The notes: a model not told the origin generated them from the letters alone. Positions 4,241 through 36,160 are shown, counted from the stretch's first letter. The stretch is 64,000 nucleotides of DNA from an uncultured Thiotrichaceae bacterium (GCA_964600755.1 CAZRKQ010000039.1:421-64420); one strand, 5' to 3'. Numbers and translations: made by a program.

Positions 4241-4412
4241 GCGTAAAAGCCCGCTTGATTGACATCAGCAATATATTCATTAGCTCGCCTTGTTTTTTAT
4301 TATTCTGATTCTTCGTTCCTGAAGTATTTATAGAACGAAATACTAACATTTTTATTGTAATATCAAGAACCGAGCTTGTGTGCCTAATTTATACTCTGAT
4401 GGACTATTTATG

Positions 4413-4437
4413 TGTTGATCAGGATCAATCTTGATCC
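4413..4437. promoter_or_regulatory. FNR/CRP-family binding-site candidate upstream of hoxF
   Basis: TTGATcaggATCAA at 4415-4428 matches TTGAT-N4-ATCAA consensus exactly, overlapping a second half-site arrangement ATCAAtcTTGAT (4424-4435); ~175 bp upstream of hoxF start codon on the coding strand side. Confidence 0.4.
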
Positions 4438-4548
4438 GAATTAGTGCGCCTGTGCACAATTCTGCACATAAGTGGATTTGCTCGTCTCCAGCCCGGCGAT
4501 AATGACCAGCGTTGATTATACAGATTTCTTCTGATTTTATCGGCCTGA

Positions 4549-6204
<1,656 letters not shown>

Positions 6205-6270
6205 TTATCTCTGCAGGAAAAGTGTTAGTCGTGAATCAATAAGGCACATTCCATTCTTTAAAAATAATAA

Positions 6271-6397
6271 TTCACCGCAGAGGCGCAGAGGCGCTGAGAA
6301 AGAAATTGGGTTTTGTTTTGCGACTGACACATCATTGCAGTGAGCAAAGAAGAAGTTATAGAAGAAGTTACTGTCTTAACAATATTCCTCTGCGTCT
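6271..6397. repeat. MITE-like repeat, copy 1 (TIR ttcACCGCAGAGGCGCAGAGGCGC ... CCTCTGCGTCTCTGCGGTgaa)
   Basis: Terminal inverted repeats with internal tandem GCAGAGGC GCAGAGGC; left subterminal region ctgagaaagaaattgggttttgttttgcg shared with copies 2 and 6. Confidence 0.6.
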
Positions 6398-17943: not shown

Positions 17944-18288
17944 TTAGCCCATAACCAAGGTTTCTATGACTTTATTGACCTGCATCAAATATATTTCTGC
18001 CCGCAGGACGACTGCAGCCTGAACTGATTGGCCATGAACGCATATCCAGCTTGCACCACAATAAATCGTGATGGTCCAATCGAGTGCAGAAACGCATGTC
18101 ACTGCCATCAAAAAAGCCCTTTCAGTATCAAATACAAGACCTGTGCCAATTATTTCTGAACTGAAAAACCACGAGGCATCAGTTACAACTGATGTGAATA
18201 ACTCTCTATCACCAGGTGTCATATCTTTGTAACAATTGAACAATGACATCCTGTAATATTCAGGGACGAAAAAGTAAATAGCGATCAT
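17944..18288 (-). CDS. Hypothetical protein upstream of the Mrp-Nuo operon
   Basis: 114-aa ORF, lower GC, no recognisable motif; may be spurious. Confidence 0.25.
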   Translation of the reverse strand: MIAIYFFVPEYYRMSLFNCYKDMTPGDRELFTSVVTDASWFFSSEIIGTGLVFDTERAFLMAVTCVSALDWTITIYCGASWICVHGQSVQAAVVLRAEIYLMQVNKVIETLVMG

Positions 18289-22101: not shown

Positions 22102-24102
22102 TTAGTTTAAGTCCATGGTGGATTCCGGTTTTGTCCCTGCTTCGAATAATGTCATCGACCTGGGTTGGCATACGCGAGAGCAATACTGGTTGAGTTCATC
22201 ATAAAGCTGTTCTGCTTTATTCAGGTAGCGGCGTGAAAAATGGAATGGAACCAGGCGAGAAACTCCAGCTTGTGTGGCAATCTCACCACAGGCGCGCGTC
22301 GTTAAATGACCATTCTGTGTTGCATGGTCTACATCAGCTTCAACAAATGCGCTCTCGCAAAATAATGTATGCGCATGTTGTGCAAAGTGGATTAACTGCT
22401 GACGATTGTCTTGCGTGTCTGCAAGATCGGTGGCATACACCAGTTTTTTTCCGGGTGTTATCAGCACCAGTTCATCAGCCAGGGTGCCGGCGTATTCATA
22501 ACTTTCGTCAGGCAGCTGAATCGCTGCTGACAGATTGTTACTGAGCAACGCCTGTTTTAACTCGTTCAGCCAGGGTCCCGGATCAAGTCCGCGTGCCTTG
22601 AGTCGATCTTTGCGAATGTTAATCTGTTGGTCGGCTTTAAGTGCATAAGCAATTACCGGCGTACCCTGATGATCAAGTGTCAGGCCACGTATGCGAAAAC
22701 CTGTCTCAACAAGCAGTTCACCATTCACCGCTGTTTTTTCATTGAATAACTGCGCTTTAACATTGCCGGCCAGTAAACGAAAACATTTCAAGCGGTCGTT
22801 GTGTAGCTCCATCACCTCAAAGGCCGGAGCATTATTTTCTATACGATCCCACAGAATGCCTTGCAGAAAACCTGCAATATGTCGGGCCAGGCCTGGCGGG
22901 CCATAGAGCCGACACACCGGATAATCGCCTATGCGCGAACGTAATAACCAGAGAAAGCCGCTGATGTGATCCATATGTGCATGACTGATAAATACATCAG
23001 TTACCTGGTGCGCAATGCGTGCTGGCAGACGCCCACCATCACCCAGGTCAAACAACAAACTGCGTCGTTGATGGCGCATGCGCAGATGTAACAATGGATC
23101 ACCAAACACGCCATTAACCAACGCCACATCAACAGCGCCGACACGGCCGACGATGCGTGGGCCATTATTGACATCAATTGATGGCAGCACGTCGTTTGGC
23201 GGCAGATAGTCAAAGCGCTCGGCGGCATAAGGTTTTGCGGTTTCAATATAGCCATCTTGACTCCGTGCAGCATCACGTATCAACAGTGTGTCTGCGTCAC
23301 CTGCTACGCCTGAAAGCGTAACTGTCAACAAATCAGACTCAACATGCTCTACCTCGCCCATGGCTAAGGTACGATTCGTTTGCAACAAGGCTACCTGTTT
23401 ACCTGGCCAGGCGCTGGTTTCAGCTGGCAATGGCGGTGTACCGGTTACATTCAGCCTGGCAAGATCAAGTGTTTGCTCTGTCGCATTGGCCAGATAAGCA
23501 TCCCACTGCGCGGTGCGCTGCCGGGCCCGTACTCGTTTACCAGGCCGTTTCGCCTCGGTGGCTGCATTAACCACGAATACCTCTAGCGGCAATGCACATA
23601 ATTCCTCCAGCAGTGGCGGCGGCCGCCCAGGTGCAGTTAATGCCAGAATTACATCCACAGCTGTCGCTTCAACCAGTCCTTGAAGAAGCTCGCGTCCGGT
23701 GACACCGCGGACCACACCGGGTGCATCGATCAACGCCATACCGGCTGGCAACTGCTGTGCCAGTATTCTGGCTGCAGATACCAGGGGTAAACGAAAGCGT
23801 CCTGCATCTAATGTGCATAACGCTGCAATGTCGGCGACCTGCCAGTGATCATCTCGCCACACTGCTGTCGATACTGAACCAGGCACACCAAACGCCGGCG
23901 AACCGGGATCGGCGTTCAGACAACAACATGGGCGTTGCAAATCAAAAAGAACTTTCGCTAACTGCGCAGCTAATGTCGATTTACCAACACCCATTGGGCC
24001 GAACAGTAATACACGCCGGTCATGTTTCATCACCGTGTTGACAATATCTGCAGCATCCAGTGCCAGTACTGGCAAATCATCAACGGTCTTGCTGGTATTC
24101 AT
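22102..24102 (-). CDS. Fusion: Clp1/Grc3-like P-loop polynucleotide kinase domain + metallo-beta-lactamase-fold hydrolase domain
   Basis: 666 aa; N-terminus LLFGPMGVGKSTLAAQLAKVLFDLQRPCCCLNADPGSPAFGVPGSVS resembles Clp1 Walker A followed by LD.GQ...PG element, then IDAPGVVRG...VDVILAL; C-terminal half has MBL HxHxDH motif (ISHAHMDHISGF) and downstream His/Asp ligands. Confidence 0.55.
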   Translation of the reverse strand: MNTSKTVDDLPVLALDAADIVNTVMKHDRRVLLFGPMGVGKSTLAAQLAKVLFDLQRPCCCLNADPGSPAFGVPGSVSTAVWRDDHWQVADIAALCTLDAGRFRLPLVSAARILAQQLPAGMALIDAPGVVRGVTGRELLQGLVEATAVDVILALTAPGRPPPLLEELCALPLEVFVVNAATEAKRPGKRVRARQRTAQWDAYLANATEQTLDLARLNVTGTPPLPAETSAWPGKQVALLQTNRTLAMGEVEHVESDLLTVTLSGVAGDADTLLIRDAARSQDGYIETAKPYAAERFDYLPPNDVLPSIDVNNGPRIVGRVGAVDVALVNGVFGDPLLHLRMRHQRRSLLFDLGDGGRLPARIAHQVTDVFISHAHMDHISGFLWLLRSRIGDYPVCRLYGPPGLARHIAGFLQGILWDRIENNAPAFEVMELHNDRLKCFRLLAGNVKAQLFNEKTAVNGELLVETGFRIRGLTLDHQGTPVIAYALKADQQINIRKDRLKARGLDPGPWLNELKQALLSNNLSAAIQLPDESYEYAGTLADELVLITPGKKLVYATDLADTQDNRQQLIHFAQHAHTLFCESAFVEADVDHATQNGHLTTRACGEIATQAGVSRLVPFHFSRRYLNKAEQLYDELNQYCSRVCQPRSMTLFEAGTKPESTMDLN

Positions 24103-24292
24103 GCTATTCCGTCTTAAACGTATCGTTTAATTATCAGTTAATTGTACTTACATATTAAGCATACCGAATAAAAGGGGAGGAGGGTTTAAATAATGTCTAA
24201 TTTCACATAATGCTTGAATATTAATCCATCCGTTCACTTTATTATCCTGTTCTATATGAATAAACTGACGGAATAACACAAGGAGAATACAC

Positions 24293-24646
24293 ATGGAAGT
24301 TAAAGCCACGATCAAGCCGGGCCAGAATGGTACCAAGCGTTACACCAGGCAGTATGGAGACCAGCTCGTATGCGTCCGATACCGCTATGACAAACGCAGA
24401 CAGAAACGCCTGACAACCGTCGAACTCATCGTCTATGAGCAGGACTGGATCCAGGGAATAACCATACCACCCGATAAAATCGTACCCATAAGAATTGCCT
24501 ACGGCGAGACAGAATTAAGGGAAAAAGTAAAAGTAGCGGGTGCGTATTGGGACAGCAAGAAAAAATTCTGGAAGTTGAGCTTCAGGCTGGTGTATGCGCT
24601 TGGGTTGGAAAAGAGAATAATCGATGAATTTGATCATTTGGAATAA
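24293..24646 (+). CDS. Hypothetical small basic protein (possible cassette ORF)
   Basis: 117 aa; no motif recognised; AT-rich flanks; followed by AAAGTTAGCC motif at 24751. Confidence 0.4.
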   Translation: MEVKATIKPGQNGTKRYTRQYGDQLVCVRYRYDKRRQKRLTTVELIVYEQDWIQGITIPPDKIVPIRIAYGETELREKVKVAGAYWDSKKKFWKLSFRLVYALGLEKRIIDEFDHLE

Positions 24647-24818
24647 TACTAAAATAACTAATTTACATATAAAGATATTTAGTTACCATATTTAGAAATT
24701 GGATATATAGATGAATAAATTATTACTACTTTTAGAAACGTCCCATACTTAAAGTTAGCCGCTAAGCGTATTTCCTAATTGATGCCAAAAGGCACACATC
24801 TATGCTATCCTTTCCCAC

Positions 24819-25097
24819 ATGAAGCCCATTAATTGGAGTCCTGAAAAGAATCAACAACTTATAGAAGAGCGTGGCATTTCCTTTGAAGATGTTGTTTTCT
24901 ATTTACAGCAAGACGCACTATTAGATGATATTGAACATCCGAATGGAGATAAATATCCAAATCAGCGAATCTTTGTTATCAGCATTGATGATTACGTGCA
25001 CCTTGTTCCATATATTGAAGATCGAAAGGAAATATTTCTAAAGACAATCATACCTAGTAGAAAAGCTACAAAGCAGTATCTTGGAGAAGAGTCATGA
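24819..25097 (+). CDS. brnT: BrnT-family (DUF497) ribonuclease toxin
   Basis: 92 aa; INWSPEKNQQLIEERGISFEDV and C-terminal IIPSRKATKQYL match BrnT W(D/S)xxKNxxNxxxHGVSFEE ... IISARRATxxER pattern; 4-bp overlap with downstream antitoxin. Confidence 0.7.
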   Translation: MKPINWSPEKNQQLIEERGISFEDVVFYLQQDALLDDIEHPNGDKYPNQRIFVISIDDYVHLVPYIEDRKEIFLKTIIPSRKATKQYLGEES

Positions 25098-25414
25098 GCA
25101 AATCAAAACTTTCTAAAGAGGAAAAAGAAATTCTCAAAGATTTCGAGGCTGGTGAATTCAAATCGGTTCTTACATCAAAACGTAAAAAAGCGATTCAAGC
25201 CTCTGCAGAGGAAACCTTTAAAAAGGATAAACGAATCAATATTAGGATCTCGAGCCGTGATCTTGAGTCATTACAACGTAGAGCATTAGAAGAAGGTATA
25301 CCCTATCAAACTTTGGTATCTAGTGTTCTACATAAATATGTGTCAGGTAGTTTGCGTGATATAGCGGCTAACAAGGCGCTCAACAAGGATGTGCAAAAAA
25401 CGCGCACCCGTTAG
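25094..25414 (+). CDS. brnA: BrnA-family antitoxin (RHH/CopG-like)
   Basis: 106 aa; RISSRDLESLQRRALEEGIPYQTLVSSVLHKYVSG typical of BrnA C-terminal RHH region. Confidence 0.7.
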   Translation: MSKSKLSKEEKEILKDFEAGEFKSVLTSKRKKAIQASAEETFKKDKRINIRISSRDLESLQRRALEEGIPYQTLVSSVLHKYVSGSLRDIAANKALNKDVQKTRTR

Positions 25415-25428
25415 CTTAAACGTTAGGT
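25366..25428 (+). mobile_element. attC (59-base-element-like) recombination site, cassette boundary after brnTA
   Basis: GGCTAACAAGGCGCTCAACAAGGATGTGCAAAAAACGCGCACCCGTTAGCTTAAACGTTAGGT: RYYYAAC-like start, internal GC palindrome region, terminal GTTAGGT core (GTTRRRY); overlaps brnA 3' end as is common for cassettes; homologous to site at 26127-26189. Confidence 0.5.
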
Positions 25429-25478
25429 TTTTTATAAGAGTGTATTAAATTTTTTTAAGCAATAATGAGGGAAAAACG

Positions 25479-26099
25479 ATGAAATTATATTACTCCCCTG
25501 GCTCTGGCGCACTTGCTTCACACATCACCATTCGAGAACTGAACTTGGATGTAGATCTAATTAAAGTAGATGTTCAAGTTGAGAATAAAACAGAAACCGG
25601 GGATGATTATCATAATATCAACCCTAAAGATTATGTACCGTATCTGGCTATAGATTCAAATATCAATTTATCGGAAGGTGTAGCAATACTTCAATATTTA
25701 GCTGACCAAAACCCTGAAGGCAATATGACTCCGCTTGAAGGAACCCCAGAACGGTATCAACTTCAGGAATGGTTGACATTTATAGCTACAGAGCCTCAAC
25801 GAATTCTTGGTTCTTTCTTCATTCCAGATAATCTTACCGAAGCGGGACTCACGTTTGCGAAAAACAGATTGCATCATAGGCTGGCGATTATGGAAGATCG
25901 ACTTACTCAAAATGAATACCTCGCAGGAACAAATTACACAATAGCTGATGCATACGCATTTGCTATCTTGAATTGGATACCTGCTTTTAATCTTGATATT
26001 GATATAAGCGCCTACAAGAATCTTAGTATCTATTTGGACAAAATTAGACAGCGAGAAGCCGTTCAAACAGCTATGAAAGAAGAGGGATTGTTAGTGTAA
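25479..26099 (+). CDS. Glutathione S-transferase (cassette-borne)
   Basis: 206 aa; N-terminal thioredoxin-like GST fold (MKLYYSPGSGALASHI) and C-terminal alpha domain. Confidence 0.8.
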   Translation: MKLYYSPGSGALASHITIRELNLDVDLIKVDVQVENKTETGDDYHNINPKDYVPYLAIDSNINLSEGVAILQYLADQNPEGNMTPLEGTPERYQLQEWLTFIATEPQRILGSFFIPDNLTEAGLTFAKNRLHHRLAIMEDRLTQNEYLAGTNYTIADAYAFAILNWIPAFNLDIDISAYKNLSIYLDKIRQREAVQTAMKEEGLLV

Positions 26100-26126
26100 T
26101 CTACAATTATTTATGCGCGAGTCTAA

Positions 26127-26189
26127 ACCTAACAAATCACTCAACCGGACGCGCTATATAGCGCGCGCCCGTTAGCTCAACCGTTAGCG
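26127..26189 (+). mobile_element. attC (59-base-element-like) recombination site downstream of GST cassette
   Basis: ACCTAACAAATCACTCAACCGGACGCGCTATATAGCGCGCGCCCGTTAGCTCAACCGTTAGCG aligns block-by-block with the aadA1 59-be (GCCTAACAATTCGTTCAAGCCGACGCC...GCGCGGCTTAACTCAAGCGTTAGAT): inverse core ACCTAAC, central palindrome GCGCGCTATATAGCGCGC, terminal GTTAG core. Confidence 0.6.
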
Positions 26190-26283
26190 AGCAAAATTAG
26201 CGTCAAAATAAATCCGGGTCAGAGAGCAATTCGTTTTAATATAAAGATCAACAGCGCCTGGATCGATTGATTACTTTCTTTGG

Positions 26284-26320
26284 CAAAGACAAAAGCCCGC
26301 ATAAGCGGGCTTTTGTCTTG
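26284..26320. terminator. Strong hairpin between convergent GST cassette and minus-strand membrane-protein gene
   Basis: caaagacaaaagcccgc-ATAA-gcgggcttttgtcttg, 16-17 bp perfect stem; lies 15 bp beyond the stop of the minus-strand gene. Confidence 0.5.
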
Positions 26321-26336
26321 CAGAATGGCAAGTGAC

Positions 26337-27530
26337 TTAACTATTCAGGTGTCTGCCCGCCCAGTTGTCCGCTATGGCCTTGGCCGCATCTTTGCCGCCG
26401 AAACCAAACGCGAGTGCAATGGCGACTGCGATGCTGCCCAGGGTGAAGCCAAAGGCCATGTTGACGATATTATCCGCCAGGCCCATCGCTCTCAGGCCCA
26501 TTGCCAGCACGAGGCCGAGAATGGCGAAACGTGCGATATTGGCTATGCCGGCACTGCTGCTACTGGATAGCTTCTGGTAGGCGATATTACCGAGGAAATT
26601 ACCAATCACCAGGATAATACTGCCGACCAGGATGCCACCACCAAACTCGATCACGCGCGCGAATATAAGCGAGATCACTTCGATGCCTAGCACATTGACG
26701 GCAGCCGTTGCTGCAGCCAGCATCGAAAAGAACATGATGGTGCCGCCGATCAGTTTTGTCACGGTGAAGCTTTCCGAGAAAATGCCGCTGATTCCCGCTT
26801 TCTCGGGTAATGCATTGATATGCATACCATCGAGCAGGCTACTCAGGATGTGTATCACGAACTTGGTTACCAGGTAGGCGACCAGCATGATTATACCTGC
26901 GCCGATGATATTCGGAATGGCTGCCATCAGCTTTTCGATCATTGCCGATGCCGGTTCCGAGATAGCGGGTATGCTCAGCACGCCCAGTGCGGATACAGCA
27001 ATGGGCAACAGGATGATGATGAAAACAAAAGCGCTTCCGAGCCCGGATACTTTTATTTCGTTATTACCCGTCCTGGATGCAATTTGTTCGTCAACCTTGC
27101 CAAGCGCCATTGAAACCATGCCTGACACAAGCTTTGCGATGATCCAGCCGGCATAACCAATCACGCCTGCGCCGATAATGTTTGGCACGGCACTGGTGAA
27201 CTTGTTAACCATGTCCTTCAGCGGCTCGAGTACATCGGTGAGTCCGAAATATTGCAGCACCGCAATCAATAAGAATATGGTTAGTAAGGCTTTTACCAGT
27301 GACGCAATGGGTGAGGCAAAGTCCACTGATGAGCCATCCTCACTGGAACGGTACAGAAAACCCACTTTCTTGAGTACACGCGCGATAATTCCCGAGATAA
27401 TCTTTACAACAAAAAGACCGGCTATGAGTATGAGCAGACCAACTATTGCATGACCCAGTTGCCCGGAAACGGCAGGTCCGAGTGCTTCTGTTATCCTGTT
27501 TAAAGTTTCTTCAATCATTTCTTTCTCCAA
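26337..27530 (-). CDS. Polytopic membrane protein with repeated conserved-TM-helix motifs
   Basis: 397 aa; repeated IPNIIGAG(V/I)I...K(L/F)V modules reminiscent of the conserved TM helix repeat seen in MscS-related proteins. Confidence 0.45.
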   Translation of the reverse strand: MEKEMIEETLNRITEALGPAVSGQLGHAIVGLLILIAGLFVVKIISGIIARVLKKVGFLYRSSEDGSSVDFASPIASLVKALLTIFLLIAVLQYFGLTDVLEPLKDMVNKFTSAVPNIIGAGVIGYAGWIIAKLVSGMVSMALGKVDEQIASRTGNNEIKVSGLGSAFVFIIILLPIAVSALGVLSIPAISEPASAMIEKLMAAIPNIIGAGIIMLVAYLVTKFVIHILSSLLDGMHINALPEKAGISGIFSESFTVTKLIGGTIMFFSMLAAATAAVNVLGIEVISLIFARVIEFGGGILVGSIILVIGNFLGNIAYQKLSSSSSAGIANIARFAILGLVLAMGLRAMGLADNIVNMAFGFTLGSIAVAIALAFGFGGKDAAKAIADNWAGRHLNS

Positions 27531-27604
27531 TTTAAGACCGGGCGGTTAGTACTCCCGGCCTTTTTCATTGATCCACCATTTCTACCTTATGGCAATACGT
27601 TTCT

Positions 27605-28012
27605 TTAGTGGGTGACCATGGGCTCTATGTTTTTCGCCTGCTCGACCCAATTGCTTACCTTGCTAGTAGCGGGTGACACTTTGCACAAGTGCTTTACGCC
27701 GTTCACTTCAGCCATTTTTTCGGCCAGGTTGTCCGCATTGCGTGTACGAAGTTCCTTAACAGTGTCTACGCCGGCGCCTTCAAGCAGTTCTGCGAACTGC
27801 CCGGCAACACCGTTGATCCTGAACAGGTCGCACATGTTTACCCACTTGAGGATCATTTTCTCATTGAGCTCAGTCTTTTCTGCCAGCGCCTTGCGGCCCT
27901 TTTTGCTGGCACCTGCCTCGAGCAGGTTCATTGTTGTTTTGATGCCTGCCTCGTTTAACATGGCAGCGTATTTTGGACCTATACCTTCTATATCCTTAAT
28001 ATTTTTAGACAT
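27605..28012 (-). CDS. DUF4332-like helix-hairpin-helix protein
   Basis: 135 aa; two DIEGIGPKYAAMLNEAGIKT / INGVAGQFAELLEGAGVDTV HhH-like repeats. Confidence 0.4.
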   Translation of the reverse strand: MSKNIKDIEGIGPKYAAMLNEAGIKTTMNLLEAGASKKGRKALAEKTELNEKMILKWVNMCDLFRINGVAGQFAELLEGAGVDTVKELRTRNADNLAEKMAEVNGVKHLCKVSPATSKVSNWVEQAKNIEPMVTH

Positions 28013-29057
28013 TAGATATTCCTCTCTTTGGACTTATATTGTTTATAAAATTAGCTGAACAGATTTTTTGCCATAACCAGTGCACCATCACCGGGATTCT
28101 CTGTCAGTGAAGACAGTGTGTCAGTCACGCCAGAGCTGCTCACAAATAATTCTGATATGGTCGAAATAGTTGAGTTCATAACCCATACCATCGGTAGCAA
28201 CTATTACGATCGATGCTGTCTCTGGAAGAAACGATGCGGCCTGTTCTGTCGAGAAGCTCGCTGTGCTCAAAGCTTCAGTTAATGTTCCCGCATGCTCTTC
28301 AAATATCCGCCCGACTAATTCCATAGCCGTCTCCGTTAAATATTTTCAATTCAATAATGCAGGCTGTGGACAAATAATATGAACTCGCTAGTTGATACAC
28401 AATTGCCAGTCGTCATCGTTAACTATTGTTTACAATTAAGAATAAAAGGGATCAGACCCATTTACCAAGTCTAAGAAGAAGAAATCGGAGATTTATTCAA
28501 AAGCTTAATCACATTCTTGTCATTCCCACGAAAGTTGTATTCTAGAAATGCCTGTTAATGCGAGCTTTTTATTAGCCTTTACTAATTTGCATCACATAAT
28601 CGAAAGGAGTAAATAAGAAGAACACTTCTAATGCATAGAGATATTAAGGAGGGTGCGGAAATTGAATGGATATTAGCCAGGAAAACAATTTATTGTCATT
28701 TTTATAAATCTCGTTTTGGTCCCTGATGAAAATTAAATAATTGATTAAATTACACCACATTTACTTATATGCCCAAATGTCGTAAAACAAATACGACATT
28801 TGGGTCCTCTAATTAAAGTTAGCTGCATTGATAATCAGGCTGAAATTATATGAGCCATACAGAAATCCACAGGTCACATCGGGTAGGATGGTTACGCGCA
28901 GCAGTGCTAGGCGCTAACGGCAGGAGTAGGCCGAATATTTGGTGTAGTTGCATGATGTGGCATTTAATAAAAGCGCTCACGTCAATATACACAGCTAACA
29001 ATCGGGTCAAGTTGACACCAAAAAGCGGCGCAACTTACCCAAGACGTAAACCGTAAT

Positions 29058-29570
29058 ATGATAACGAGCAAAGTAATAATTGATGACGCAAAAATACTGA
29101 TAAAGCATGAATCTTGTTCAGGTCCCAGTTGGTGTCGAAATAAAGAGATATTCATCGAATCTAATAGCGCTGAAAAGAACACACTATCAACGATAAAATT
29201 CGATGATTATTTGGATATTTATATATTTTGGGAGTCGTTTACTTCAGCCACATCGGTAGAAGTACTTTATGTGCCAGAAACTGGAGTAATGTTTATTGGG
29301 GCGGGAACTGTAAGTGCTCGAATTAGCACAAAAGACAGTTCACTCCTGGATTCAGATGACGTATGTTTATTTTGGGGGTTTGATCGTCACAAAGAAAAAT
29401 ATGTGCTAGAAACTGGTGAATTGGAGTGTTTTTTATATAACCTCGAAGGTAAGAAAATATCAACTGCGGTTGTTGATCCCCCGTATGAAACAAAAATATT
29501 GGAAAAAGGAATTAATTTTGAATCAATTGTGTCAGGAAGCACTTGGCTACTATATGAAGAAAACGTCTAA
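29058..29570 (+). CDS. Hypothetical protein (AT-rich putative cassette ORF A)
   Basis: 170 aa; low GC; no recognisable motif; 37 bp upstream of ORF B (possible two-gene cassette). Confidence 0.4.
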   Translation: MITSKVIIDDAKILIKHESCSGPSWCRNKEIFIESNSAEKNTLSTIKFDDYLDIYIFWESFTSATSVEVLYVPETGVMFIGAGTVSARISTKDSSLLDSDDVCLFWGFDRHKEKYVLETGELECFLYNLEGKKISTAVVDPPYETKILEKGINFESIVSGSTWLLYEENV

Positions 29571-29607
29571 CAAGTCATTCAAAAGGACTAAACCTACCCT
29601 ATAAAAA

Positions 29608-30033
29608 ATGGCAGACATAAAAGATTTAGAAACCTGCAACTACTTTCCAGTCGATAGTGTAAGTTTACTGTTTGTTGGATGGTTGTCTGGGGGATCCGAC
29701 TACGAAACAGGAAAAGTAAGCGAGGACTTTTTCAATAGGCTTTGTGAGCTATCTCATAACCCATGGCAACCGGTTGTAAGCGCAGGCATGCATTTTTGTG
29801 AACTTTGCCAATTTAATCCACCGGCTTTCACAAAGAATATATTTATTCCATATAAAGGTGTCATATATGTAGCTCCAGAGGCAATTACTCACTATATAGC
29901 AGTGCATTGGTATATGCCGCCTGCTATTTTTATTGAAGCAGTTCTGGCGTGCCCTGAGATGCAAAGCATGGAATATAAAAAAGCCATTTTGCAAAACGGT
30001 GGCAGAGGGTTAGTAAAATCAATAAAGGTCTAA
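29608..30033 (+). CDS. Hypothetical Cys-rich protein (putative cassette ORF B)
   Basis: 141 aa; conserved-looking HFCELCQF segment; followed by attC-like sequence. Confidence 0.4.
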   Translation: MADIKDLETCNYFPVDSVSLLFVGWLSGGSDYETGKVSEDFFNRLCELSHNPWQPVVSAGMHFCELCQFNPPAFTKNIFIPYKGVIYVAPEAITHYIAVHWYMPPAIFIEAVLACPEMQSMEYKKAILQNGGRGLVKSIKV

Positions 30034-30044
30034 TAAGTACATTA

Positions 30045-30103
30045 ATTGCGCTCCCATTGGCCGCCGGACGCGCTACCGTGCGCCGCTTATGTAAACGTTA
30101 TGC
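30045..30103 (+). mobile_element. attC-like site (weaker), after ORF B
   Basis: ...ggccgCCGGACGCGCTAccgtgcgccgcttatgtaAACGTTATGC shares the CCGGACGCGCTA block and aaCGTTAnG terminus with attC at 26127-26189; left inverse core not obvious. Confidence 0.3.
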
Positions 30104-30167
30104 ACTGTAAATGATGACTAGAGTATTGTGGGCCACATTAGGATAACTACCACTTACCATATGTGCT

Positions 30168-30536
30168 ATGTTATTCCTTACGGAATGGCGATTGTTGGGT
30201 GGTCAGTATCCAAAAGTGGGCTATGGTATTTTTATGCTTGGGGCCGTTGTTAGTGTCGTAAATATGTATACCTCGTATCTGCGATATCCTGTCCATCGAG
30301 TACTGGGTAAATCTCGAGACAGCTATAAGCATGTTTCAGGATTCCCGCTGATTGGTGGGTTAGTGCTAATCGGTGCTTGGCTTTTACCGCAAAGCCTTTG
30401 GTTAAGTTTAGTAACCGCATTGTTAATGTTACTAGATACAGGGGGGGTATTTAGTGGTTTGTTGCTAAGGTTTGGGCTGATCCTTTTTTTTGGAGGAAGG
30501 AAAATGAATAACAAGTCATTCGTGTGGGACGTCTAA
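30168..30536 (+). CDS. Hypothetical small membrane protein (putative cassette ORF C)
   Basis: 122 aa, 3-4 predicted TM segments. Confidence 0.4.
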   Translation: MLFLTEWRLLGGQYPKVGYGIFMLGAVVSVVNMYTSYLRYPVHRVLGKSRDSYKHVSGFPLIGGLVLIGAWLLPQSLWLSLVTALLMLLDTGGVFSGLLLRFGLILFFGGRKMNNKSFVWDV

Positions 30537-30579
30537 AGCGCTGCGCGCTTTATCCGCCTCCACAATTCTAACGTTAGCT
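30531..30579 (+). mobile_element. attC-like site (weaker), after ORF C
   Basis: gtctAAAGCGCtgcGCGCTTTatccgcctccacaattctAACGTTAGCTg: central palindrome plus aaCGTTAGCT terminus as in the other sites. Confidence 0.3.
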
Positions 30580-30603
30580 GTTCTAAACTGTAGTAATTAA
30601 AAT

Positions 30604-30984
30604 ATGGACGAAAAAATTACATTCACCAATCACGATGATTATTTACTTGTTGGCATCACAGACAAGGTCATAACTGTTCAGCGCGCCCAGGAAATACTGG
30701 CTCGAATCGGGGAGGAGTGCGCTAGCCTGAAATGTAAGAAAGTTCTTCTAGATGAAATGTCTGTTGAGAAGCGAGAGGTTCCTCCAAATGAAATTAAAAA
30801 ACTGGCATTTGATCTTAAAAAAAACAAACTGAATAAAGTCTATATGGCATTTTTATGCCAACCTCATCTTATCGGTTATGATTCACACTTACTAAGTTTA
30901 TACACTTATATGACTGAATTTATAATCCAGCATTTCACCAATAAAGATAAAGCAATTAGCTGGCTTAATAAAAAAGATAGCTAA
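30604..30984 (+). CDS. Hypothetical protein (putative cassette ORF D)
   Basis: 126 aa; AT-rich; no confident motif. Confidence 0.4.
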   Translation: MDEKITFTNHDDYLLVGITDKVITVQRAQEILARIGEECASLKCKKVLLDEMSVEKREVPPNEIKKLAFDLKKNKLNKVYMAFLCQPHLIGYDSHLLSLYTYMTEFIIQHFTNKDKAISWLNKKDS

Positions 30985-31130
30985 CTATACATTTCTATAT
31001 TTATCGAATTTATATTAATAGCGCTTATATTAATGAAAACAGGCCGTGGCCACCGTATATTCAGGATGGTTAGTCGGGTATTCCACAGCAGTGCATTACA
31101 CTCAGTTGAACCGTATAGATATATAGCTTT

Positions 31131-31595
31131 ATGAGGTACTTGTTAATATCTTTTTTATCGCTCTTTCTTTCAGCTTGCGGCAGTTCTTCCTCCGACGTTA
31201 GTTCTAATCCATTAGCTGGCACCTGGTTAAGTAATTGTTATGAGTTGACGGATGAGAATGGATTATTTATTGCATATAAAATCAATAACCTGGTGATTGC
31301 AGGCGGCGAATATACATCGAACACTTCCGATTTTACGGATGTTAACTGTACTAATCCTGCTGGCGGCGCAGGCACACAAAATTCCACGTATACGTTAGGT
31401 GGGCAGGTCACTGCTTCTGACGGTGTTCAGGCACAGTGCATAACACTAATATCAGAGTATCTATTTTATGGACAACCTGTAACGATTACATATGAAGCTA
31501 TATTTCGAATTACCGGTGTTGAGCTTAATTTCGGAGGCTTTGTTAGTGGCCAGACTCCTTCACTTGATTACAGTGTTACCTACATCAAGCAGTGA
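31131..31595 (+). CDS. Predicted lipoprotein (putative cassette ORF E)
   Basis: 154 aa; signal peptide with lipobox LSAC-GSSSS. Confidence 0.5.
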   Translation: MRYLLISFLSLFLSACGSSSSDVSSNPLAGTWLSNCYELTDENGLFIAYKINNLVIAGGEYTSNTSDFTDVNCTNPAGGAGTQNSTYTLGGQVTASDGVQAQCITLISEYLFYGQPVTITYEAIFRITGVELNFGGFVSGQTPSLDYSVTYIKQ

Positions 31596-31692
31596 TGAGT
31601 GCGGCATTATCCCATAGGGCTGTAAGCGTAGATTTGATCTGATTCAGCTCTAGCTGGTTAATTTAGACAGGCTTTGAGCTATACATATATTC

Positions 31693-32079
31693 ATGCAATT
31701 TAAAACATTACATGTATATTATCTGGCTACGCCAGTGTTTTTTATTTTTTATTACTATTTTGATCTAAACCTGAGGCTGTCAATTCCCGGTGGACAGGAA
31801 TATTGGATGTACCTGTATTATATTGTTTGTTTTTTAGCCGGCTTTATAGCTTTTAACAATGTTATTACGGGTGCGGTTTTTTCGCTTATTGAAAGTTCAA
31901 TCAATATATTGTTGCTGTTACTGAGTGTTATGATGCCAGTAGTCGATCTTGCTCAGCACCCGATGGAAAATATTCGGATGAGCTTTGGCGTTCCCGAAAT
32001 AATCCATTTTTTAATTGCAGGTTCTATTCTGTTGCTCAGTTTTTATTCCAATCCATTAATATCCAAATATGAGGCTTGA
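31693..32079 (+). CDS. Hypothetical membrane protein (putative cassette ORF F)
   Basis: 128 aa; 3-4 hydrophobic helices; AT-rich. Confidence 0.35.
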   Translation: MQFKTLHVYYLATPVFFIFYYYFDLNLRLSIPGGQEYWMYLYYIVCFLAGFIAFNNVITGAVFSLIESSINILLLLLSVMMPVVDLAQHPMENIRMSFGVPEIIHFLIAGSILLLSFYSNPLISKYEA

Positions 32080-32284
32080 TGTCATACCATAAGGACGTGA
32101 TGAAAATGACTTGCCATTCACTATGGCATGGCTGCGTCGTCATGATCAATACGAAGACTGATACCGTCGTTGCATAACTCTGGCTAAACTATCCGGGAAT
32201 ATCTGAGTGTGGTAGTCAGTTGTAATGCTGTTGTTTAATTGTTCTAATAGTCTTATCCCATTCAGCTCGAAAAGGAAACAGGCC

Positions 32285-35200
32285 ATGCGCATGAAATGGG
32301 TTCTGATCTCGCTGTCTGCAGTTGTCCTGCTACCGGTTCTGCTGCTTGCTATTGTCCTGGTTTTTCTCGATAGTGCAGATCTCAGCCAACACCGCGATGT
32401 TATTGCCGAACAGGTCAGCAAGATAATTGGGCGGCAGTTAAGCCTGAACGGCGAACTCGACCTCCAGCTATCCGCGAGTCCTTCCATCACGATTACCAAC
32501 ATCGCCCTGGCCAACGCGGCATGGGCCGAACAACCTGAAATGCTGTCTGTGCAGCGCATCGAGGCAGAGATCGAACTGCCGCCCTTGCTGGACGGTAATC
32601 TCCATATCCCCCGCTTCCATGTTGCGGGCGTAAAGGCCTCGCTGGAAACCAGTGCCGATGGTAAGGGCAACTGGGTGCTGGCTGAACCGGATGAGACTGT
32701 TATCGAGGAAGATGATGCCGCCGTGGCTGGCGAGTTTAAATTGCCCTGGCTGGGTGACGTCAATGTCTCCGATGTTGTGTTTGCCTATCACGACGGCCAA
32801 ACAGGGCAAAGCGTTACGGCAACACTCGACAATGCCAAAGTCAGTGCGGTTGACCCGCAATCACCGACTGAATTCGACATCGTCGGGCAGGTGAACAACA
32901 ACCCGGTCGAGATCAATGGCAAGCTGGCGCTGCCGTCCGTGCTGGCAACAGGCAGCCTGGACATTCCCGTTGAGCTGCACGCGCAGGTGCTGGATATAAC
33001 GGCTGATGCAAGCGGTAGCATAACCGGTTCCGCGGAGTCACCTGCAATTGACCTGGGTGTTAAGGCCAATGCGGCCAACCTGAAACAACTGCGGCAGGTA
33101 TTTGGTGATGTTGTACCAGAGGTGCAACCCGTCAAGCTGGATATGGAAGTTAAAGGTGACCAGGGACAGCCGGTGTCATTCAAGCTCAATGCCATCGCCG
33201 GTAAAGGCAAGCTGGATACACAGTTAATGTTGCAGCGAGACGAGCCCAGACCGAATTTAACCGGCAGCGTGGATATCAGCGATGTTGACGTCGCGCGTCT
33301 GTGGGCACCGCTTTTAGCCGGTAAGCCAGGCAAGGCGACGACAACGGAGGCACAAGCCTCACCAATGACAACATCACAGCGACTGGATCAACCGCTACCT
33401 CTTGCATGGCTGAACACGTTTGACGCCGATGTCGTGTTATCTGCTGACAACATCAACCTGCCGCAGGTGCGCATAAAAAGTCTACATAGCCGCCTCATTG
33501 TTGACGACCGCCGCCTGAACATAGAAGAGTTGAAGCTGAGTACCGATGCCGGATCAGTTACGGCAGGTCTGATACTGAATGCCCGCGGCAAGCAACCTGA
33601 TGTGCAGCTCGATCTCAACACAACAACTGTTGCATTGGCCAGGCTGCAACCGCTTGCGGAGAACAAGCGCCTGGCTCACAGCGATGCAAAAGCTTCAATC
33701 TCCCTGACTGCCCAAGGTGACACCGTGGCGGCGCTGATCGAGAGCCTGCAGGGGAACGTGCTGCTGGATTACAACGATCAGAAACGCAAGGAAAAACTTT
33801 CGCTAAAGCTGATGCGAAAACCGCAAGTTAAAGGTGGCCAGCAACAGCCGGTGTCATTAACGCTCAACGCCATCGCCGCTAAAGGCAAGCTGGATTCGCA
33901 GCTAACGTTGCGGCGAGACGGGCCCAGGCCAAATATAACCGGCAGCGTGGATATCAGCGATGTTGACGTCGCGCGCCTACAGGCTTCGCTTTCTGCAAGC
34001 GAGCCAGGCAAGGCGACAACAACAGAGGCACAAGCCTCACCAATGACAACATCACAGCGACTGGATCAACCGATACCTGTTGCCTGGCTGAACACGTTTG
34101 ACGCCAATATCGTGTTATCAGCTAACAACATCAACTTGCCGCAGGCGCGCATAAAAAGCCTGCATAGCCGGTTCATTGTTGACGACCGCAATTTGAAAAT
34201 AGATGAGACAAAGCTGAGTACCGATGCCGGATCAGTTATGGCGGGGCTGCTACTGAACACCCGGGGTAAGAAACCGGATATACACCTTGATCTCAATACG
34301 ACAACTGTTGCGCTGGCCAAACTGCAACCGCTTGCAGCGAACAAGCGCCTGGCTCACAGCAATGCTGAAGCTGCAATCTCCCTCACTGCACAAGGTGAGA
34401 GCGTTGCGGCGCTGATAAAGAGCCTGCAGGGGAGCGTGCAACTGGACTACAACGATCAGCAACGTAAAGAAAAACTTTCGATAAACCTGACGCGTAAACC
34501 GGAAGAGAAAGCTGCAGGTAAGGCCCGGCTTGTTGTGGCTGCCAGTGGAAGCATCGATGGGCAACCGATTGAACTTAGCGGTAATATTATTCCACCCGCC
34601 GGATTTTTACTGAGAAAAAAACCTTACGAAATCGATCTTGCTTTGCAAGCCTTTGGCGTGACTGGCAAGGTAACTGGCACGGCGGCCGACCCCTATGCAT
34701 TGAACGGAATCGATCTTGCTGTTGAAGCGCACGCTGCTGACCTGGCTGGACTGCAGAAGGCATTTGGCAAAAGCGTACCAACAGTCGGCAAAACAGACGT
34801 AAGTACGCGTCTAACAATGCAGCAGTCGAAGCTGAAGCTGTCTAAATTGCAGGTCGGGCTTGGCGGTGGCCGTATTGACGGCTGGCTTGGAGTGGATACT
34901 TCGGCATCTATACCTGATGTACAGGCAGAACTCACATTCACAGATCTCGACCTCGACAAGTTGCTGCCAGCAGAAGACAAGCCGGCCGAAGCTAAGCAGG
35001 CCGCGAAACCTGAAAATGAAAGAGTTTTTTCCGATGCGCCGCTGCCGTTTGAAAGCCTGTCACGAGCAAACATTTCGGCGACACTGCGGGCCAACAACCT
35101 GGTGCGTAATAACAAGCGGCTAAAACAGGCCGAAATCAAAGTTGATTTAATAAACGGTAAACTCACTGCCTCATTACTCAAGGCTGCTTCAGTCCATGGT

Positions 35201-36160
35201 GAGCTTGTCGGTGTTTTTACAGTAGACACCAGCGGTAAGGGAAAACCGGGTGTGACGATCAAGTTTAAAGCGCCTCATATAGAACTGGGTGAATTACTTA
35301 CGGCAAGTGGCAGCACGGCTGCAGTCGAGGGCCCGTTGGTGGCAGATATTTTCCTGCAGGGGCAGGGCAACAGTGTAGCGCAACTCATGGCAACACTGAA
35401 TGGAAATGTACATCTACTGATGGAGCACGGTAGTGCCGACGCCAAGGCGCTTGATTTGTTCGTCGGTGGGCTAAGCGCAATGTTCGGCACCATTTTCGTA
35501 GACCAGTCATCAAAAACCCGGATTAATTGCGCTATCTGTGACCTGAAGATCGATAACGGCATGCTTATACCTCAGCTTGCATTACTCGACACCCAGTACT
35601 CCACGGTGTTCGTCGAAGGACAGGTCGATTTGAAACAGGAACAACTTGATATCACGGTTTCGCCGGAGGCCAAGGGTGTGACCCTGAGCGTGGCAGTGCC
35701 AGTACGTCTGCAAGGCAAGCTAAGCAAGCCGGGTATTGAGATCGAGAAAACCGGCGCGTTGATAAAAACTGGCCAGCTCTGGGCAACCGTAGCTTACCCG
35801 CCTGCTGCACTGGTCAAGTTTACCGACCTGGGTGGTGGCAAGCAGAATCCCTGCGTTTCAATGGTTGCCGAAAAAAGTAGTATGCCCATCGTAGAAGACA
35901 TCGGCAAGGCTGTGGGAGGTGCTGTTAAAGGTGTCGGCGGTGTTGTTAAAGATGTCGGCTCCGGTACCGGTGATGTGGTTAAAGATGTCGGCTCTGATGT
36001 CGGCGGAGCGGTTAAAGATGTCGGCTCGGGTCTTGGTGGTGCTGTTAAGGGTGTTGGCTCAGGATTAGGCAAGATCTTTGGCAAGGGGAAAGAAGATGCT
36101 GAATCAACGACAGCCACGGAGAACGATGACGAGGATGAAGACTTGTTCGACATGGACTAG
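32285..36160 (+). CDS. AsmA-family outer-membrane biogenesis protein (enlarged by internal duplication)
   Basis: ORF 32225..36160; likely start MRMKWVLISLSAVVLLPVLL at 32285 (AGGAAA SD); N-terminal TM anchor plus AsmA-type domain; 226-aa internal direct repeat; Gly/Val/Lys/Asp-rich periodic tail. Confidence 0.7.
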   Translation: MRMKWVLISLSAVVLLPVLLLAIVLVFLDSADLSQHRDVIAEQVSKIIGRQLSLNGELDLQLSASPSITITNIALANAAWAEQPEMLSVQRIEAEIELPPLLDGNLHIPRFHVAGVKASLETSADGKGNWVLAEPDETVIEEDDAAVAGEFKLPWLGDVNVSDVVFAYHDGQTGQSVTATLDNAKVSAVDPQSPTEFDIVGQVNNNPVEINGKLALPSVLATGSLDIPVELHAQVLDITADASGSITGSAESPAIDLGVKANAANLKQLRQVFGDVVPEVQPVKLDMEVKGDQGQPVSFKLNAIAGKGKLDTQLMLQRDEPRPNLTGSVDISDVDVARLWAPLLAGKPGKATTTEAQASPMTTSQRLDQPLPLAWLNTFDADVVLSADNINLPQVRIKSLHSRLIVDDRRLNIEELKLSTDAGSVTAGLILNARGKQPDVQLDLNTTTVALARLQPLAENKRLAHSDAKASISLTAQGDTVAALIESLQGNVLLDYNDQKRKEKLSLKLMRKPQVKGGQQQPVSLTLNAIAAKGKLDSQLTLRRDGPRPNITGSVDISDVDVARLQASLSASEPGKATTTEAQASPMTTSQRLDQPIPVAWLNTFDANIVLSANNINLPQARIKSLHSRFIVDDRNLKIDETKLSTDAGSVMAGLLLNTRGKKPDIHLDLNTTTVALAKLQPLAANKRLAHSNAEAAISLTAQGESVAALIKSLQGSVQLDYNDQQRKEKLSINLTRKPEEKAAGKARLVVAASGSIDGQPIELSGNIIPPAGFLLRKKPYEIDLALQAFGVTGKVTGTAADPYALNGIDLAVEAHAADLAGLQKAFGKSVPTVGKTDVSTRLTMQQSKLKLSKLQVGLGGGRIDGWLGVDTSASIPDVQAELTFTDLDLDKLLPAEDKPAEAKQAAKPENERVFSDAPLPFESLSRANISATLRANNLVRNNKRLKQAEIKVDLINGKLTASLLKAASVHGELVGVFTVDTSGKGKPGVTIKFKAPHIELGELLTASGSTAAVEGPLVADIFLQGQGNSVAQLMATLNGNVHLLMEHGSADAKALDLFVGGLSAMFGTIFVDQSSKTRINCAICDLKIDNGMLIPQLALLDTQYSTVFVEGQVDLKQEQLDITVSPEAKGVTLSVAVPVRLQGKLSKPGIEIEKTGALIKTGQLWATVAYPPAALVKFTDLGGGKQNPCVSMVAEKSSMPIVEDIGKAVGGAVKGVGGVVKDVGSGTGDVVKDVGSDVGGAVKDVGSGLGGAVKGVGSGLGKIFGKGKEDAESTTATENDDEDEDLFDMD
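33167..34522 (+). repeat. Tandem duplication (2 x 678 bp) inside asmA-like gene
   Basis: Unit 1 (33167-33844) and unit 2 (33845-34522) encode QPVS(F/L)(K/T)LNAIA(G/A)KGKLD(T/S)QL...NDQ(K/Q)RKEKLS at ~85-90% identity. Confidence 0.8.

Follow-up and report, generated by a model that had tools for sequence, protein, structure and literature searches.

In a 64,000-nucleotide stretch of DNA from an uncultured Thiotrichaceae bacterium (GCA_964600755.1, CAZRKQ010000039.1:421-64420), which as a whole is called the window here, the AT-rich block at 24.1-32.1 kb was confirmed to be a genuine integron gene-cassette array with classical attC sites. An integron-type array had been proposed at this place in an initial annotation made from the sequence alone, and the proposal was borne out by an independent attC covariance model as well as by a test of core complementarity. 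The region 24293-32100, which includes a small gene for a protein of 117 amino acids (aa) at its left end, very probably represents the head and body of a chromosomal integron platform that carries no integrase gene itself. Where the array begins, 24739-24760 qualifies as a putative attI-type site, and comparison across many genomes showed the small gene, four phased palindrome-type sites and this predicted attI to be conserved as one module.

The first covariance model, R1, was built from attC sites of class 1 integrons only (aadA1, aadA2, aadB, psp, qacL and OXA-732; n = 6), the aadA1 sequence having been checked against plasmid records (100% identity in 1,962 records). Its structure was set by hand: a 7-bp stem on the outside, spacers left unpaired, and an inner stem carrying two bulges of one base each. 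The 3' inner stem had been misplaced in MAFFT alignments of 10 and of 7 known attC sites, which were rejected; the long sites and cmlA1 were then left out of the seed, so that R1 is narrow and of limited sensitivity. As a positive control it recovered the cmlA1 attC from outside its seed, and it missed the attC sites of estX, dfrA14 and aac(6')-Ia/orfG as well as the sites of about 190 bp in L081, one of the other loci compared below. A second model, R2, was made from 29 R1 matches in other loci (environmental sites); no model was made from a further alignment, A5, in which class 1 sites had matched themselves on the reverse strand. In the 29-site alignment 87.5% of cells pair (24-38% in slid controls) and compensatory changes occur at 16 of 22 pairs (100 cells vs 35 in shuffles), counts which lean towards the structure because the alignment was fitted to that of R1.

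The search of the 64-kb window with R1, on both strands and with filters off, gave four matches with E < 0.03, all on the plus strand and all inside the block, followed by a next-best match at E = 1.7. Outside the block, no match below E = 0.7 was obtained on either strand with R1 or R2; the best one, at 18014-18087 on the minus strand (R2 13.7 bits, E 0.75; R1 10.7 bits), has no AAC/GTT cores and is probably due to chance. The sites in the array are:

25366-25428, plus strand: attC of cassette 1, GGCTAAC ... GTTAGGT (R1 19.8 bits, E 0.003; R2 41.4 bits)
26127-26189, plus strand: attC of cassette 2, aadA1-like, ACCTAAC ... GTTAGCG, bulged bases at canonical positions (R1 33.9 bits, E 1e-7; R2 54.7 bits)
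28993-29052, plus strand: attC of a short cassette (R1 19.8 bits, E 0.003; R2 26.9 bits)
30506-30579, plus strand: attC, GAATAAC ... GTTAGCT (R1 17.1 bits, E 0.02; R2 35.4 bits)
30028-30103, plus strand: degenerate, sub-threshold attC of the DUF7919 cassette, GTCTAAT ... GTTATGC (R2 10.7 bits, E 3.6; not found by R1)

The first two had been placed at exactly these positions in the initial annotation, including the overlap of 25366-25428 with the brnA stop codon (25412-25414), which indeed lies inside the site. A site that it had put at 30531-30579 is real but longer than claimed (30506-30579), and its site at 30045-30103 corresponds to the weak match at 30028-30103, which is treated here as degenerate. 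The annotation had overlooked the attC at 28993-29052, the truncated one at 29564-29590 and the remnant that opens with AGCTAAC at 30976, as well as the attI site, the four palindromes and the conserved 117-aa gene.

Folding with RNA parameters, which the annotation had suggested as a check, agreed with attC identity: the bottom strand was 2-10 kcal/mol more stable than the top strand at all five sites (-19.0/-15.1 kcal/mol for bottom/top at 25366-25428, -27.9/-17.7 at 26127-26189, -23.5/-14.8 at 28993-29052 and -29.4/-20.2 at 30506-30579). The site 26127-26189 aligns position by position with the class 1 attC of aadA1, sharing 7-bp inverse cores, a 5-nt spacer and bulges at the same places; its bulged top-strand C and A fall in unpaired columns of the model, and its bottom strand, with extrahelical bases in brackets, reads GCG[T]CCGGTT[G]AG, a pattern less clean in 25366-25428. 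These first two sites resemble each other (88% over 26 nt), and they are the only two in the array that do so. No convincing attC shape was seen on folding the candidate stretches 28745-28822, 30976-31077, 31596-31692 and 32075-32160. A scan of the window at Rfam gathering thresholds gave no family match, Rfam being assumed to hold no attC model, and terminator-like sites were not enriched in the window (10 vs 6.9 expected from shuffles).

In the integron reaction the folded bottom strand of attC recombines with attI between the G and the TT of the 3' core. A cassette hence starts with TTRRRY, and its own attC opens with the complement of that start. This complementarity is exact in the window between GTTAGCC at 24754 and GGCTAAC at 25366, GTTAGGT at 25422 and ACCTAAC at 26127, GTTAGCT at 28818 and AGCTAAC at 28993, and GTTAGCT at 30573 and AGCTAAC at 30976, and a further pair (GTTATGC at 30097, GAATAAC at 30506) differs by one mismatch. 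In 16 of the 25 consecutive attC pairs of all loci, the 3' core of one site and the 5' core of the next were exact reverse complements (7/7), against a mean of 1.5 and a maximum of 7 with shuffled partners, and the 5' core of the first attC was the exact complement of the attI GTTRRRY in 15 of 28 loci. Neither terminators nor repetitive extragenic palindromic (REP) elements can give rise to complementarity of this kind, and the reading of the units as integron cassettes is confirmed.

The annotation's statement that the window holds no tyrosine recombinase stands. IntI1 found nothing better than E = 8 in the window by tblastn, Pfam scans of 30 open reading frames (ORFs) of the array and the larger flanking ones yielded no recombinase and no Phage_integrase domain, and no intI lies in the 24 kb upstream or the 32 kb downstream of the array. 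With attC sites at 25366, 26127, 28993 and 30506 on one strand (R1/R2 models), a largest gap of 2.8 kb and no integrase in the window, the array is by definition a CALIN, a cluster of attC sites lacking integron-integrase (Cury et al., 2016, PMC4889954). The annotation had left the choice between a CALIN and the distal part of a sedentary integron; the former fits and the latter does not, since the array begins at an attI-type site. Its remark that such arrays are unusual outside Vibrio and Xanthomonas was overstated, as CALINs and integrons are common (PMC4889954); a 2026 preprint gives a figure of 17% of genomes.

The head of the array consists of the following features:

24293-24646, plus strand: conserved 117-aa gene, uncharacterised family
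24662-24738, plus strand: four phased 16-bp palindrome-type sites, spacing about 20-21 bp
24662-24677, plus strand: palindrome 1, weak
24683-24698, plus strand: palindrome 2, TTACCATATTTAGAAA
24704-24719, plus strand: palindrome 3, half-site
24723-24738, plus strand: palindrome 4, TTACTACTTTTAGAAA
24739-24760, plus strand: attI-type simple site, CGTCCCATACTTAAA-GTTAGCC, putative crossover between G24754 and T24755

The palindromes begin 15 bp past the stop codon of the small gene; when all of the window is compared with TTACTANNNNTAGAAA, the sites 24683-24698 and 24723-24738 match best. In homologous loci TTTCTAnnnnTAGAAA-type palindromes likewise follow the stop codon, at offsets 0/21/42/61, the one at 42 often being a half-site, and are succeeded by an attI1-like GYCTAMT-N5-6-GTTRRRY. 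A covariation between palindromes and protein clades is not claimed: the flanks vary (TTTCTA, TGTCTA, TTACTA, TTGGCA, CATCCA), while most share a CTA-N4-TAG core. In the window the last palindrome abuts the left attI box, and the attI core GTCCCATACTTAAAGTT, with both inverted core boxes present, parallels GTCGCCCTAAAACAAAGTT of attI1. The motif AAAGTTAGCY was found, as annotated before, to recur at 24751-24760 and 28815-28824. Inside the palindrome region, a promoter scan had one weak sigma-70-like match, at 24662-24689. In several other loci (L034, L037, L025, L017, L018, L036, L044) the preceding gene has a hairpin like a rho-independent terminator, and only 10-60 nt lie between the end of this hairpin and the ribosome-binding site of the small gene, which leaves little room for a promoter.

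The module of small gene, palindromes and attI was met in about 90 loci of other genomes; a metagenome scan with the small gene contributed 80 further loci. In the 83 loci carrying the small gene that were scanned for attC, R1 gave 40 and R2 60 matches, all of them on the strand of the small gene and all downstream of it, with 257 kb of upstream and 154 kb of downstream sequence available. A related metagenome-assembled genome (MAG) keeps the small ORF 24293-24646 and about 100 bp beyond, then diverges after ...AGTTA. In the same way, in pairs of platforms with 90-100% identity upstream, all similarity stops at or directly behind the crossover point within GTT (window/L012, L021/L024, L032/L033, L082/L083, L070/L071). 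The last pair is 100% identical over 621 nt up to GTTAG and again 100% identical afterwards; L071 has 455 extra bases, which comprise one ORF and an attC (GCCTAAC...GTTAGAA) and thus mark a single cassette gained or excised at attI. In relatives whose flanking genes are 85-90% identical, the platform occupies the same position on the chromosome (CitMHS, CLP1_P/metallo-beta-lactamase (MBL)) and is filled with other cassettes, so that the cassette variation among relatives for which the annotation had called was observed. Contigs of the same organism from several metagenomes (L003-L007) are identical in cassette content. Taken together, these sequence comparisons show that the predicted attI has been used very recently in the clade of the window.

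Many contigs end no more than about 250 bp past the small gene (L018, L019, L023, L028, L041, L049, L058, L074, L077, L088, L089), those of L018 and L023 at the GTT of attI itself. Such ends are expected if a population varies in its first cassette, and the family is therefore badly under-represented in long contigs.

The 117-aa protein is composed of two beta-alpha-beta-beta halves and has about 400 close homologues, whose upstream contexts are diverse (ComF-like, MatE, aldehyde dehydrogenase and others) and whose genes always have attI and the cassettes, with small genes on the same strand, behind them. The family comprises 2,718 clusters at 50% identity with E < 1e-3 and 1,454 with E < 1e-10, and a profile for distant members collected 6,710 clusters at 90% identity; in the sources every member is named 'hypothetical protein'. 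Neither Pfam nor NCBIfam has a family above threshold for it, no relative was found in the PDB, and the searchable open-access literature holds no description of the gene. DUF5710 of Pfam scores 14.8 bits for the window protein, below its gathering threshold of 26.5 bits, and matches 13 of 25 family members weakly (best E 1.4e-4), always in the C-terminal half. The ratio of nonsynonymous to synonymous substitution rates (dN/dS) of 0.03-0.08 indicates strong purifying selection, hence the gene is no pseudogene in the clade without intI. In the region 663-1021 of L057, which is closely related (94% for the flanking protein), the match of the small gene is confined to residues 1-69; the gene has its stop about 70 nt on and runs straight into an attC (953-1021), a deletion variant that has lost palindromes and attI.

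In a distant clade, 8 of 18 loci have a homologue of IntI (39-55% identity to IntI1) encoded directly beside the small gene, either just upstream on the same strand (L081, L089, L069, L066, L078) or divergently (L088, L074, L073), and in a ninth case, L100, only 9 bp separate the small gene from a Phage_integrase gene upstream. L081 represents a complete integron. The small proteins of the intI-linked loci are less than 53% identical to that of the window. In the window's own clade, intI was present in none of the 37 loci with at least 1 kb of upstream sequence, 19 of which have at least 5 kb, and the 10 kb upstream in L071 are likewise free of an integrase. The palindromes are nevertheless well kept across this clade, some perfectly. 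With intI linked to it in the distant clade and lacking in that of the window, the small gene is thus a component of integrons that has persisted beyond intI in a whole clade. Three loci of the distant clade that lack intI (L097, L098, L099) have transposase genes (DDE_5, DDE_3, IS91-type Y2_Tnp, IS110-type) within about 2-5 kb downstream of the small gene, L099 along with two PemK toxin genes.

Downstream of attI, the cassettes and cassette-like genes are arranged as follows:

24755-25422, plus strand: cassette 1, brnT-like toxin gene 24819-25097 and CopG/BrnA-like antitoxin gene 25094-25414 (Pfam), bounded by the attI crossover and the G of GTTAGGT
25423-26183, plus strand: cassette 2, glutathione S-transferase gene 25479-26099 (Pfam GST_N, GST_C)
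28819-29046, plus strand: short cassette with attC 28993-29052, degenerate 3' core GTAAACC (GTA for GTT)
29058-29570, plus strand: 170-aa ORF without family, within 29058-29590
29564-29590, plus strand: truncated attC, 5' half alone left, GTCTAACAAGTCATTCAAAAGGAC, matching the 5' half of the psp attC, CGCTAACAAGTCATTCAAGCCGAC
29608-30033, plus strand: DUF7919 gene (Pfam), cassette stretch 29608-30103
30098-30579, plus strand: cassette with 122-aa membrane ORF 30168-30536 and attC 30506-30579
30574-31075, plus strand: cassette with 126-aa ORF 30604-30984, attC remnant AGCTAAC at 30976, rest decayed
31131-31595, plus strand: lipoprotein ORF, AT-rich, cassette-like
31693-32079, plus strand: 128-aa membrane ORF, AT-rich, cassette-like

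This agrees with the cargo named earlier (a toxin-antitoxin pair, a glutathione S-transferase, unknown small proteins and a lipoprotein), although the BrnT_toxin match of 32.7 bits lies just below the Pfam cut-off of 34.5; CopG_antitoxin (29.0 bits) is above its cut-off of 28. The toxin and antitoxin genes overlap by 4 nt. The sole ORF of the short cassette (68 aa, 28850-29056, plus strand) has no family match and overlaps its own attC, and the cassette may be non-coding or encode a small peptide. A copy of the 126-aa ORF, 86% identical, sits at another array position in a related species (L013/L015), where its attC is intact save for the 3' core; in the window, GTTAGTC at 31069-31075 could be the 3' core of this cassette. 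No recognisable attC follows the lipoprotein ORF or the 128-aa membrane ORF in the R2 search or on folding. The array amounts to only about eight cassettes, and the decayed sites at 29046, 29564 and 30976 indicate that its distal portion is partly fossil. In L015 four cassettes at 4140-6300 show point changes in their cores (GCTATGC for GTTATGC, GCATGAC for GCATAAC, and GATATAT at the last site), which suggests an inactivation of sites by mutation; REP-like GC-rich repeats follow that array.

Between cassette 2 and the short cassette the array is interrupted:

26184-28817, minus strand: 2.6-kb stretch of host-like GC content without attC, three minus-strand genes and a terminator of its own
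26286-26319: terminator hairpin
26337-27530, minus strand: membrane protein with MS_channel_1st_1 repeats
27605-28012, minus strand: DUF4332 protein
28121-28324, minus strand: 67-aa ORF
28804-28824, plus strand: second junction, near copy of the attI core, GTCCTCTAATTAAA-GTTAGCT, putative crossover between G28818 and T28819

Neither model matched 26184-28817 better than E 5 on either strand. The second junction is like attI, 28804-28826 matching the attI core at 24740-24762 in 19 of 23 positions, and its GTT is the true junction of the next cassette. No second copy or remnant of the small gene was detected at 28.3-28.8 kb, nor were palindromes near the junction. The stretch may have been inserted into an attC, may be another, degenerate platform, or may have arisen from an event between attI and a secondary site. 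Just before the junction, 28772-28804 forms a perfect 13-bp hairpin with a 7-nt loop (CCCAAATGTCGTA AAACAAA TACGACATTTGGG); it has no T run and is thus not terminator-like, and it is not an attC by R1 or R2.

GC content is about 0.5 in the flanks of the window and 0.37-0.40 in the low-GC parts of the block at 24.1-32.1 kb, which are occupied by small ORFs on one strand, several without family; at 26.2-28.3 kb it rises to about 0.49 and breaks up the AT-rich block. Housekeeping genes of the window include those for 6-phosphogluconate dehydrogenase, NADH dehydrogenase subunits, glutamate dehydrogenase and an AsmA-family protein, ahead of which the block ends at about 32100. This 1311-aa protein (32225-36160, plus strand) has a long, near-identical internal tandem duplication (residues ~330-560 and ~565-800) and a C-terminus of Gly/Val/Asp-rich repeats (VKDVGSG...) followed by an acidic tail. 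Directly upstream of the platform lies the gene of a 666-aa protein (22102-24102, minus strand), a fusion of a CLP1_P-type P-loop domain and an MBL-fold domain, which also occurs in the relatives L001 and L013-L015. L012 has no space for the fusion, as its small gene comes almost immediately after the CitMHS gene. Among the genomes of the species collection the nearest is a gammaproteobacterial MAG without classification, whose counterpart of the 666-aa protein is 85% identical in amino acids. A search of the genome collection with this protein gave one related MAG, in two short contigs, and an exact-sequence look-up of it returned no record.

From these data the following course of events is proposed. 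The cassettes, as their cores show, were inserted singly at the attI simple site, with the crossover between G24754 and T24755, by the integron reaction. The integrase would act in trans, encoded either at another place in the genome or on a transient element. The small protein would bind the four palindromes, which are phased at two helical turns, beside attI, and would serve as an integron-encoded architectural or regulatory factor that positions the recombination complex at attI, gates upstream transcription into the array, or both. Sequence-specific binding of the palindromes is moderately favoured, and we infer that by such binding the protein may organise attI or cassette transcription. 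Rather speculative, and at present doubtful, is the wider proposal that protein and palindromes constitute an unrecognised third component of many environmental integrons, an attI-binding factor which, in the large clade without intI, might keep the platform competent, its attI taking up and releasing cassettes through IntI provided in trans or, conceivably, through a recruited host tyrosine recombinase.

Several points weigh against the interpretation as an integron platform. Without an integrase the recombination mechanism is incomplete within the window, and there is no convincing cassette promoter Pc (26 promoter-like sites vs 22.2 expected from shuffles). Simple insertion of cassettes does not account for the stretch 26184-28817 and the attI-like junction behind it. 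Given the mutations of GTT triplets in the window and in L015, some of the array may be inert. The pair counts of R2 are inclined towards the fitted structure as said above, and the metagenome contigs are not independent samples, L070/L072 and L013-L015 being duplicates.

Among the alternatives, a dead integron survives best and is still improbable. Here intI would have been deleted, and the small gene and array would be decaying relics without current recombination. Degenerate sites in the window (GTAAACC at 29046, truncated 29564, weak 30028, remnant 30976), the GTT-to-GCT changes of L015 and the identical cassettes of the same-species contigs L003-L007 would all fit; yet low dN/dS in the small gene and palindromes retained throughout the clade without intI do not, and neither do first cassettes that vary between near-identical platforms, the one-cassette difference in an otherwise 100%-identical pair, and the perfect core complementarity of the first two window cassettes. 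It was also considered whether a foreign integrase inserted cassettes at a fortuitous, attG-like GTT, the small gene and palindromes being unrelated to integrons. This is markedly less probable, in spite of the missing adjacent intI and of the use of non-att genomic sites by integron integrases, for which little beyond GTT is needed according to one preprint (10.1101/2022.09.11.507474): the site has both inverted attI core boxes, the module of gene, palindromes and simple site heads arrays in unrelated genomic contexts, and members of the distant clade have the gene with intI on one side and the cassettes on the other. Hardly better placed, and if anything a little worse, is a distal piece of a large sedentary chromosomal integron that was split from its intI and attI by a rearrangement. 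The array opens with an attI-type site behind the conserved gene and palindromes, the same head stands beside the same core genes (CitMHS, CLP1_P/MBL) in relatives with different cassettes, and intI is missing from all 37 related platforms with at least 1 kb upstream, even though the lack of intI over 24 kb upstream and 32 kb downstream and the host-like 2.6-kb stretch, as a sign of rearrangements, would suit such a history. That the repeats are REP- or terminator-like palindromes of a horizontally acquired island can be practically dismissed. As imperfect palindromes past stop codons, attC sites may be confused with terminators, and the block is AT-rich like many islands, but matches to an independent attC model (E down to 1e-7) on one strand only, bulges at canonical positions, the core-complementarity rule, the absence of an Rfam match and the ordinary number of terminator-like sites (10 vs 6.9) all speak for attC.

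The preferred reading, an integron platform without its own intI, can be set against known systems. Integrons are described as intI, attI and Pc with cassettes, accessory factors being all supplied by the host (PMC8946536). Compared with class 1 integrons, the window is without intI1 and DR1/DR2, has four 16-bp palindromes upstream of the simple site instead, carries the small gene in the position of intI/Pc and has cargo other than antibiotic resistance. As in CALINs, two or more attC sites lie on the same strand within 4 kb, neither intI nor a pseudogene of it is found within 10 kb, and the cassettes are of unknown function and chromosomal. CALINs are, however, defined without attI, whereas the window has a conserved attI-type head and a dedicated gene, with recent insertion at attI in the clade. 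Sedentary chromosomal integrons have a fixed location in related species, more than about 20 cassettes and homogeneous attC sites; here the location is conserved in relatives, but the cassettes number about eight, and only the first two attC sites are alike.

An 'inverted integrase' group, reportedly set out by Boucher et al. in 2007, is said to have intI oriented as the cassettes, for example in Treponema denticola. The intI genes of L081, L089, L069, L066, L078 and L100, co-oriented and immediately upstream of the small gene, resemble this group; it differs in that here the small gene and palindromes lie between intI and attI, that the window's clade has no intI and that intI is divergent in L088, L074 and L073. 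Accessory-assisted tyrosine recombination is familiar from lambda Int, with Xis/IHF arm sites, and from Xer, with accessory sequences. By analogy, the phased repeats of predicted binding sites beside the core crossover and a small basic protein encoded adjacent to them may be comparable, and no homology of the small protein to Xis, IHF or other known factors was found in Pfam, NCBIfam and PDB comparisons.

As a plain CALIN the locus would be ordinary; what is distinctive is the head of a platform without intI, with an uncharacterised, widespread, strongly constrained gene and an elaborate attI. CALINs have been discussed as relics, secondary-site insertions or split arrays, and where cassette arrays without an integrase come from has been in question since 2016 (PMC4889954). 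The locus shows that many such arrays, as a large class with a common conserved head and an attI that still gains or loses cassettes, are more than random debris. If the small protein is indeed an attI-binding factor, a large share of the 'surprisingly abundant' CALINs would be living platforms instead of relics, and should it organise attI or control the expression of cassettes, the list of parts that make up environmental integrons would have to be changed. In that case the small gene would offer a simple marker for array heads and attI sites beyond the reach of current tools, and the CALIN puzzle and the dynamics of arrays without intI would become open to direct experiment.

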